The translations under genes and the position numbers were made by a program. Below, piece by piece: positions 275-597 of a stretch of 597 nt of DNA (the stretch's first letter is position 1; each line of letters opens with the position of its first letter). Source of the DNA: Escherichia coli (lineage in GTDB: Bacteria; Pseudomonadota; Gammaproteobacteria; Enterobacterales; Enterobacteriaceae); assembly GCF_003334255.1 (NCBI RefSeq), contig NZ_QOWU01000214.1; one strand, 5' to 3'. Under the pieces are notes generated by a model. It saw nothing but the letters and a program-made list of their open reading frames with translations. It searched no databases and had not been told where the DNA came from.

Positions 275-597
275 ATGAGCGGATTTGCACAGGGGTTACT
301 TGCCGGATTCAGCACTGTTGACCAGGCAATGACCCGTCGTAAGGAGCTTGGTTTGCGAGAAGCACAGCTTGCTCAGCAACAGAAAAATAACGAGCGCGAT
401 TTTGAGTTTGCGCAGTCGCAGTTTGAACATAATAAAAACGTTGATCAGCGTGACTTTGATTACAAAGCCAAAGTTGATGACCGTGATTATGCACTGCAGG
501 AAAGGGAGTTTAACGCCAACCAGAATTACCGGAATGCGTCGCTGGGTATGGAGCAGCAGCGACTCCGGATGCAGAAATACAACCAGCGACGGCTTGA
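275..597 (+). CDS. Hypothetical protein, 3'-truncated by the window (at least 107 aa); N-terminal short hydrophobic/glycine-zipper-like segment followed by a Q/N/R/D-rich low-complexity region; possibly a phage virion-internal or membrane-associated protein
   Basis: ATG at 275 with an SD at optimal spacing, and the frame stays open to the end of the window (last full codon 593..595). It is absent from the supplied ORF track, presumably because it has no stop. Translation begins MSGFAQGLLAGFSTVDQAMTRRKELGLREAQLAQQQKNNERDFEFAQSQFEHNKNVDQRDFDYKAKVDDRDYALQEREFNANQNYRNASLGMEQQRLRMQKYNQRRL. G3, G7 and G11 form a GxxxGxxxG unit. The 107 visible residues are about 14% Gln and 11% Arg with no Cys, Trp, Pro or Ile. 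The functional guess is inference only. Confidence 0.78.
   Translation, partial: MSGFAQGLLAGFSTVDQAMTRRKELGLREAQLAQQQKNNERDFEFAQSQFEHNKNVDQRDFDYKAKVDDRDYALQEREFNANQNYRNASLGMEQQRLRMQKYNQRRL

Follow-up and report, generated by a model that had tools for sequence, protein, structure and literature searches.

Does the truncated gene that closes this stretch of Escherichia coli DNA (the window, 597 nt analysed in full) encode, as the original prediction offered by analogy, an internal virion or DNA-ejection protein of a podovirus? The question bears on how short-tailed Stx phages, which disseminate Shiga-toxin genes, pass DNA and a protein of ~300 kDa through the E. coli envelope.

Two genes on the + strand occupy the window (Table 1). 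The minus-strand ORFs in the ORF list are short and without support, and scans of the window for Rfam families, promoters and terminators found nothing. The coding sequence of an upstream 148-aa protein ends at window position 3 (L001:12003, L001 being a prophage locus identical to the window), and 10 nt separate the TAA codon at 262-264 from the ATG at 275. Since the Shine-Dalgarno sequence of each gene overlaps the preceding stop codon, the two genes are tightly coupled in translation, in line with the tightly coupled gene string that had been described. Retranslation of positions 275-597 reproduced the 107-residue product exactly, and a composition count agreed that Cys, Trp, Pro and Ile are missing from it. 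The gene had also been described as running off the window, and downstream extension in the 100%-identical E. coli prophage gave a complete ORF of 421 aa, annotated there as 'hypothetical protein'. The full-length product (46.8 kDa, acidic and mostly helical) does contain Pro, Ile and Trp; it is still free of Cys.

Table 1. Features of the window and of the protein encoded at its 3' end (positions are those of the 597-nt window).
Feature	Position	Strand	Basis and remarks
Shine-Dalgarno AAGGAGG for the 83-aa gene	2..8	+	Sequence; overlaps the TAA stop (1-3) of the upstream 148-aa cassette gene
Gene for the 83-aa glycine-zipper partner protein	13..264	+	ORF call and annotation
Shine-Dalgarno AAGGAG	263..268	+	Sequence; 6 nt before ATG 275; overlaps TAA 262-264 of the 83-aa gene
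First 107 codons (+2 nt) of the 421-aa protein WP_042200224.1	275..597	+	ORF open at window end; phrog_601; ortholog of phi24B vb_24B_47 ('gp48' in the preprint)
N-terminal peptide of the 421-aa protein, ~16 residues: SGFAQGLLAGFSTVDQ			
Hallmark N-terminal motif G-[LF]-A-x-G-[FL]-L-A-G-F-x-T-x-D, residues 3-16, GxxxGxxxG	281..322	+	Family conservation
Start of predicted continuous polar alpha-helix, residues 4-129 (126 residues, ~19 nm; window reaches residue 107)	284..597	+	AlphaFold2, pLDDT ~80-96
ERDF, motif 1	392..403	+	Most strongly conserved of the four motifs; consensus in the family [DE]-R-[ND]-[FY]
QRDF, motif 2	446..457	+	Kept in closer relatives only
DRDY, motif 3	479..490	+	Stx-phage subgroup only; D-x-[RQ]-[WF]-G nearby in other members
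EREF, motif 4	500..511	+	Stx-phage subgroup only

Prophages in four E. coli genomes match the window at 100% identity, and 186 phage records, which belong to Stx-converting and related Escherichia/Shigella phages, match it at 80-95%; the two phage records that were checked fall in the subfamily Sepvirinae (genera Traversvirus and Oslovirus). The prophage is of the 933W/phi24B type within Sepvirinae. The flanking genes, whose examination had been suggested, are those of the late operon of a short-tailed Stx phage. In the identical prophage, the 421-aa gene is preceded by genes of 133, 218, 148 and 83 aa, which come after the tail genes and a lom/hok moron region, and is followed directly by the gene of a giant, 2,793-aa LPD38/LPD5 polyvalent protein. 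The same prophage carries an IS1 transposase immediately before the lom moron and, between lom and the cassette, a gene for a Hok/Gef toxin (L001:8431-9128 and 10208-10348), and a Panacea-domain gene, an IbrB-like gene and a PAPS-reductase gene are found after the giant gene.

Synteny of the cassette was kept in 7/7 distant relatives (19-33% identity), comprising six metagenome/genome loci and the cultured Vibrio phage D60. At these seven loci, the cassette comes after SU10-type adaptor, nozzle and needle genes, and its order is ~130 aa, ~205 aa, 115-168 aa, 77-108 aa (205 aa in one locus), the family member and the giant gene, which measures 1,639+ to 4,891+ aa and encodes LPD38, LPD3, InPase or ART-PolyVal domains. 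The 421-aa protein is the fourth member of a conserved five-gene cassette that ends the late operon and that consists of genes for a ~210-aa protein, a ~150-aa protein, a ~80-aa glycine-zipper protein, the 421-aa protein and the giant polyvalent protein. In Vibrio phage D60, an HNH endonuclease gene on the opposite strand lies between the small glycine-zipper gene and the family gene (L017:10731-11522), an insertion that breaks the otherwise tight gene coupling there. A scaffolding protein was also considered and rejected. The usual place of a scaffold gene is between the portal and capsid genes, where phage phi24B has the 342-aa gp70, and the 421-aa gene comes after the tail genes.

The location of the protein can be approached through phi24B, the virions of which were studied by cryo-EM and proteomics in a 2026 preprint (doi 10.64898/2026.04.10.717836). 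The phi24B ORF 47852-49114 (421 aa) is 86% identical to the window's protein over 421/421 residues, and residues 1-33 are identical. The supplementary table of the preprint labels this ORF 'gp48 Transcription factor?' and credits it with 1,634 spectra overall; the whole-virion batch digest contributed 179, against 101 for the portal and 746 for the giant gp47. The virions were CsCl-purified, and the cassette neighbours gp51, gp50 and gp47 were detected too (doi 10.64898/2026.04.10.717836). The gel-slice peak of gp48 lies between the 579-aa nozzle and the 409-aa capsid protein, which indicates a full-length product. Furthermore, the tryptic peptide SGFAQGLLAGFSTVDQAMTR (residues 2-21) was seen in the virions, which confirms the start codon in the ortholog and means that the virion form retains the N-terminal motif. 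With the preprint authors' length-normalised spectral-count formula, calibrated on a portal of 12 copies, gp48 is estimated at ~37 copies per virion, a rough figure derived from spectral counts only; on the same calibration, the nozzle came out at 6.2 copies against an expected 6, and the lateral fibre at 22 against an expected 18. The phi24B ortholog is an abundant and unprocessed component of the virion. Note that this virion evidence consists of published data on an 86%-identical ortholog, a different allele from that of the window.

The label 'Transcription factor?' (doi 10.64898/2026.04.10.717836) goes back to the GenBank entry for vb_24B_47, where an old note reads 'similar to putative transcription initiation factor and seryl t-RNA synthetase'. 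Label and note together speak for a non-structural protein, such as a transcription factor, that contaminates virion preparations. This explanation is largely refuted and we give it very little credence: Pfam, NCBIfam, PDB sequence and fold searches revealed no DNA-binding, sigma or tRNA-synthetase domain at any threshold, and a similarity of the kind recorded in GenBank is typical of long polar helices. Moreover, the spectra exceed those of the portal in CsCl-purified virions, and the position of the gene among structural genes is kept in all seven distant loci.

The symbols gp48, gp50 and gp51 do not occur in the main text of the preprint, and no text places gp48 in the cryo-EM virion model. 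Its absence from the model is no proof of an internal location, and an external, flexible tail accessory (of the needle tip or fibres) that is averaged out in cryo-EM would equally go unmodelled. The unassigned needle-tip density noted by the authors and the long helix of the protein fit such an accessory. The authors, however, assign the needle-tip density to gp54/gp55 by size (doi 10.64898/2026.04.10.717836), and ~37 copies of a 47-kDa protein on the outside of the particle should be visible. The gene also resides in a cassette with a giant internal protein, with the lom moron between the cassette and the fibre genes, and one family member (P0145, see below) is fused to P22 gp16, all of which makes an external accessory quite improbable.

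Sequence features singled out in the original prediction were recovered as described. G3, G7 and G11 are present at the N-terminus, and the four acidic-Arg-acidic-aromatic motifs lie at the positions given for them (ERDFEF at 392-409, QRDFDY at 446-463, DRDYAL at 479-496 and EREFNA at 500-517). At least four motifs of the form [EDQ]R[DE][FY] occurred in 0/20,000 composition-preserving shuffles, both for the 107 residues and for the full protein. In an alignment of 39 family members, the N-terminal residues G3, G7, G11, F12 and D16 were conserved in 26, 35, 37, 29 and 25 sequences, respectively; judged by this conservation, the GxxxGxxxG N-terminal peptide is a hallmark of the 421-aa protein family. 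At the position of motif 1, an acidic residue was found in 31/39 members, R in 15/39 and F/Y in 22/39, and the peptide DFEFAQSQFEHNK from this region accounts for 86 spectra in phi24B virions.

The N-terminal hydrophobic stretch is only ~13 residues long, and AlphaFold2 pLDDT values there range from 48 to 63. The best 19-residue hydropathy window of the whole 421-aa protein reaches 0.88 (KD19) and lies elsewhere than the N-terminal motif, and no transmembrane segment was predicted in the protein at this maximum. By these hydropathy values, the N-terminal motif appears to lack the length and the hydrophobicity of a transmembrane helix; a true glycine zipper is found in the upstream 83-aa protein. 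We propose that the N-terminal peptide is either a docking peptide, contacting the tail or portal lumen or a partner protein, or a membrane-interface peptide.

AlphaFold2, run on the 39-sequence alignment (mean pLDDT 86, pTM 0.52), predicts that the long helix listed in Table 1 is followed by short helices (residues 132-200), a four-stranded beta unit (213-266) and further helices (267-420). The composition of residues 16-129 is 22% Q+N, 18% D+E and 18% K+R. The original prediction spoke of a Gln-rich charged region that was helical or disordered; the model bears out the helical alternative, with helix 4-129, and not the disordered one. A canonical coiled coil is not supported for the long helix because the 3.5-residue hydrophobic periodicity of residues 16-129 gave a peak no stronger than that in shuffles (fraction 0.6). 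A Foldseek search of the model against the PDB returned no match at E<=1e-3. Against BFVD, there were two hits, both of which we take to be family members: a protein left unnamed in the tables, 17% identical over the full length, and a 143-aa piece from phage phi191.

A phmmer search of 1.84 billion cluster representatives retrieved 62 proteins. Full-length members of the family are mostly 400-500 aa long and 16-40% identical to the query. They are conserved in a central block (query residues 204-270) in which G204 is invariant and G242, P248, T250 and D259 are present in at least 90% of members, and they are variable in the C-terminal half. PHROGs contains only families of unknown function for the 421-aa protein, phrog_601 (E 8.5e-202, residues 1-421 against profile positions 1-434 of 443) and phrog_15571 (109 residues; E 2.8e-66), which matches residues 1-109 only. 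The separate existence of phrog_15571 suggests that N-terminal gene fragments, arising from truncations or frameshifts, were called as independent ORFs in several phage genomes. Pfam-A gave no match for the query even at E<=10 and no relevant match in separate scans of the 39 members, NCBIfam gave none for the 421-aa protein, and precomputed Pfam assignments for distant relatives were not on record, in a resource that covers recent families, PF26808 among them, for other proteins. Candidates from PDB sequence searches, with the single sequence and with the profile, were rejected as noise (ribosomal protein L27, a Beclin-2 coiled coil and a 'VTYxDGS' beta-strand snippet). The central strand 'VTYxDGSxAxKPxT' (query residues 236-250; L001:12980-13024) resembles 'KVTYPDGSTDEVPVT' of a bacterial surface-protein domain (PDB 6s5w) at E 0.35, a match too short and too weak to interpret. 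No cellular family was matched in the Pfam, NCBIfam, PDB and fold searches, and the genomic context is that of a phage; an unrelated cellular family or a context devoid of phage genes would have counted against the analogy.

These searches also bear on the possibility that the protein is a co-injected effector, acting on a host target in anti-defence or takeover, instead of a structural part of a conduit. The protein is packaged beside a polyvalent effector protein, and its C-terminal half varies across the family, as might be expected of an effector. Against this, the Pfam, NCBIfam, PDB and fold searches turned up neither an enzymatic nor a binding domain, it is the N-terminal peptide and the small beta domain that are conserved, within an elongated, structural architecture, and the estimated copy number is high. 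We consider the effector improbable.

The 83-aa protein encoded immediately upstream starts with MGYG, continues with a polar N-terminal helix and then a C-terminal glycine-zipper hydrophobic segment, and ends with SLF; its hydropathy maximum (KD19) is 1.81. It goes under the names 'YMGG-like glycine zipper-containing protein' in RefSeq and 'bacteriocin' in some phage records, and belongs to PHROG phrog_594. A homolog is encoded directly upstream of the family gene in six distant loci, and the protein is thus a conserved family itself. One 442-aa protein, P0132, is an in-frame fusion of a family member with the polar N-terminal half of the small protein, whose zipper tail has apparently been lost; this could be a real deletion or fusion, or an assembly artefact. 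The phi24B counterpart (86 aa) was detected at a low level in virions (13 spectra), and the preprint dismissed a virion 'homolog of a bacteriocin' as a contaminant (doi 10.64898/2026.04.10.717836). The 83-aa glycine-zipper protein may instead be a membrane-inserting component of the ejection apparatus. The preprint authors propose that gp47, abundant yet invisible in their cryo-EM maps, is an ejection protein (doi 10.64898/2026.04.10.717836). The sole structural study so far names the giant protein alone as an ejection factor, and the 421-aa protein was probably set aside as a contaminant too, judging from its 'Transcription factor?' label.

A functional link is provided by one family member, P0145 (1,386 aa), which carries a true gp16 domain C-terminal to the family domain. 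Its N-terminal ~280 residues belong to the 421-aa family (family residues 5-281, E 1.1e-14), and its C-terminal region is 36% identical to residues 136-598 of P22 gp16 (BLASTP, E 2e-77) and is assigned to PF26808 in precomputed annotation. Our Pfam copy returned no family when scanned with the C-terminal 1,160 residues of P0145, probably because that copy lacks PF26808. P22 gp16 is an established ejection protein, and the fusion therefore ties the 421-aa family functionally to ejection proteins. The P0145 locus (L004:10001-14161; GCA_051468635.1 chromosome) is an integrated element with integrase, AlpA, Zn-ribbon/Toprim/DUF927 primase and Bro-N genes and no other structural genes; it resembles a P4-type satellite equipped with an ejection protein of its own.

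The presence of the ortholog in virions, the phage late operon, the adjacency to the giant gene and the gp16 fusion lend substance to what had been offered as an analogy, an internal virion or DNA-ejection protein of a podovirus. We infer that the 421-aa protein is inside the particle and is ejected, and it is most likely an unannotated addition to the known class of podophage ejection proteins. More specifically, it is probably an ejection (pilot) protein that forms or extends a trans-envelope conduit. On release of the tail needle, the protein would pass out through the tail, either before the giant protein or along with it. The protein would next assemble, via its ~19-nm polar helix, into an oligomer that constitutes a conduit across the periplasm or a part of one, with the upstream glycine-zipper protein supplying the membrane-inserting element. 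In doing so, it would fill the role that N4 gp51/DEV gp72, T7 gp15 or P22 gp20 have in their ejectosomes. With this proposal, a 'hypothetical' family of ~60 clusters at 50% identity, distributed among Escherichia/Shigella prophages and phages, Vibrio phages and metagenome/genome contigs, gains an annotation, and the five-gene cassette centred on the 421-aa protein offers concrete experimental targets.

Homology to known ejection proteins, for which profile and structure comparisons had been suggested, was found neither with hhalign nor in Pfam or the PDB, in sequence or in fold. In hhalign comparisons, the family profile matched P22 gp20, P22 gp16 and N4 gp51 with probabilities of 0.8%, 0.2% and 0.07%, respectively, and PF16928 (the P22 gp20 family) did not figure among the families listed at E<=0.1 in separate scans of the 39 members. 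All-against-all phmmer and blastp comparisons of six Stx cassette proteins with P22 gp14/7/20/16 and N4 gp51/52 gave nothing. A homolog search with P22 gp20 itself gave only sequences at least 92% identical and hence no useful gp20 profile. Given the negative profile comparisons with gp20, gp16 and N4 gp51, the 421-aa protein cannot be filed in any characterised ejection-protein family. It resembles P22 gp20 in its similar size (471 aa for gp20) and in occupying the same slot, directly before the last and largest ejection gene. The N-terminus of gp20 (GGFLAGIG; SGGFLAGIGAQ, L011:10069-11481) also resembles the family motif SGFAQGLLAGF, by eye only. The 421-aa protein differs from both gp20 and gp16 in having no Pfam match or profile similarity to either.

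The Lessievirus proteins Bcep22 gp74 and JC1 gp68 are likewise virion proteins by mass spectrometry (510-532 aa), and their genes lie directly upstream of that of a ~4,500-aa LPD3/LPD38 DarB-like polyvalent protein. The gp74 family has the N-terminal motif G-F-A-Q-G-[LF]-x-x-G in common with the 421-aa family (hhalign 54%, E 1.2e-4, over 27 residues), and the gp74 N-terminus, GIGAFAQGLMQGM (L016:10276-11871), resembles SGFAQGLLAGF with weak profile support. In contrast, gp74 has a long Pro/Ala-rich linker instead of the polar helix, and the rest of the protein is unalignable. A tblastn search with a family member found no Burkholderia phage. Bcep22 gp74, P22 gp20 and the 421-aa protein are alike in being virion proteins of middle size whose genes immediately precede the largest ejection or polyvalent gene. 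Speculatively, the GxxxGxxxG peptide might be a portable module, either a signal for virion incorporation and tail-lumen docking or a membrane-interface peptide, common to ejection proteins of middle size that are otherwise unrelated and accompany giant polyvalent proteins (Sepvirinae-like, Lessievirus and possibly P22 gp20), and exploited by mobile elements. We hold this to be doubtful; if true, the P0145 chimera of the P4-like element could let a satellite load its own ejection protein into helper particles.

In the gp14-gp15-gp16 ejectosome of T7, gp15 is a helical internal protein of the periplasmic tunnel that is ejected after the outer-membrane component and before the largest protein (PMC12633501). 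This is the functional slot that we propose for the 421-aa protein. The ejection proteins of T7 and N4 are usually present in 4-12 copies, fewer than the ~37 roughly estimated for phi24B gp48. This higher copy number, the lack of a predicted transmembrane segment and the absence of heptad periodicity in the long helix weigh against an ejection protein.

In the N4/DEV operon, the gene for a small membrane protein (N4 gp52) is followed by those for the mid-size tunnel protein gp51 and the giant packaged protein gp50; the products are ejected in the same order, and before ejection gp51 sits as a helical hairpin by the portal (PMC12633501). A protein so placed could instead be an internal capsid tether or chaperone that recruits and organises the giant polyvalent protein in procapsid assembly, for example around the portal, and that may exit with the giant without making a channel. 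Such a tether would agree with a family gene that invariably adjoins the giant gene, with virion copies as numerous as those of the giant protein or more so, with the lack of a transmembrane segment and with an N-terminal motif common to Bcep22 gp74, which is likewise paired with a giant protein. However, the portal-bound N4 protein is itself a tunnel-forming ejection protein, so that the two roles are not exclusive (PMC12633501), and the fusion partner in P0145 is gp16, an ejection protein, and not a giant protein. A role confined to tethering is conceivable and, in our judgement, rather unlikely.

For an ejection protein that forms or extends a conduit, the Schitoviridae operon of N4 and DEV would, by analogy, be the closest parallel in function and organisation. 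The parallel has its differences. N4 gp51 is 644 aa long, with predicted hydrophobic termini that the 421-aa protein lacks, and there is no sequence relationship between the two; the giant partner is a virion RNA polymerase in N4/DEV and a polyvalent LPD38 protein in the Stx phages; and the small partner has its domains in the reverse order of those of the 83-aa protein, in which the polar helix precedes the glycine-rich segment. What N4 gp51 and DEV gp72 have in common with the locus studied here is the arrangement itself, their order of small, mid-size and giant genes matching the order of the 83-aa, 421-aa and 2,793-aa genes.
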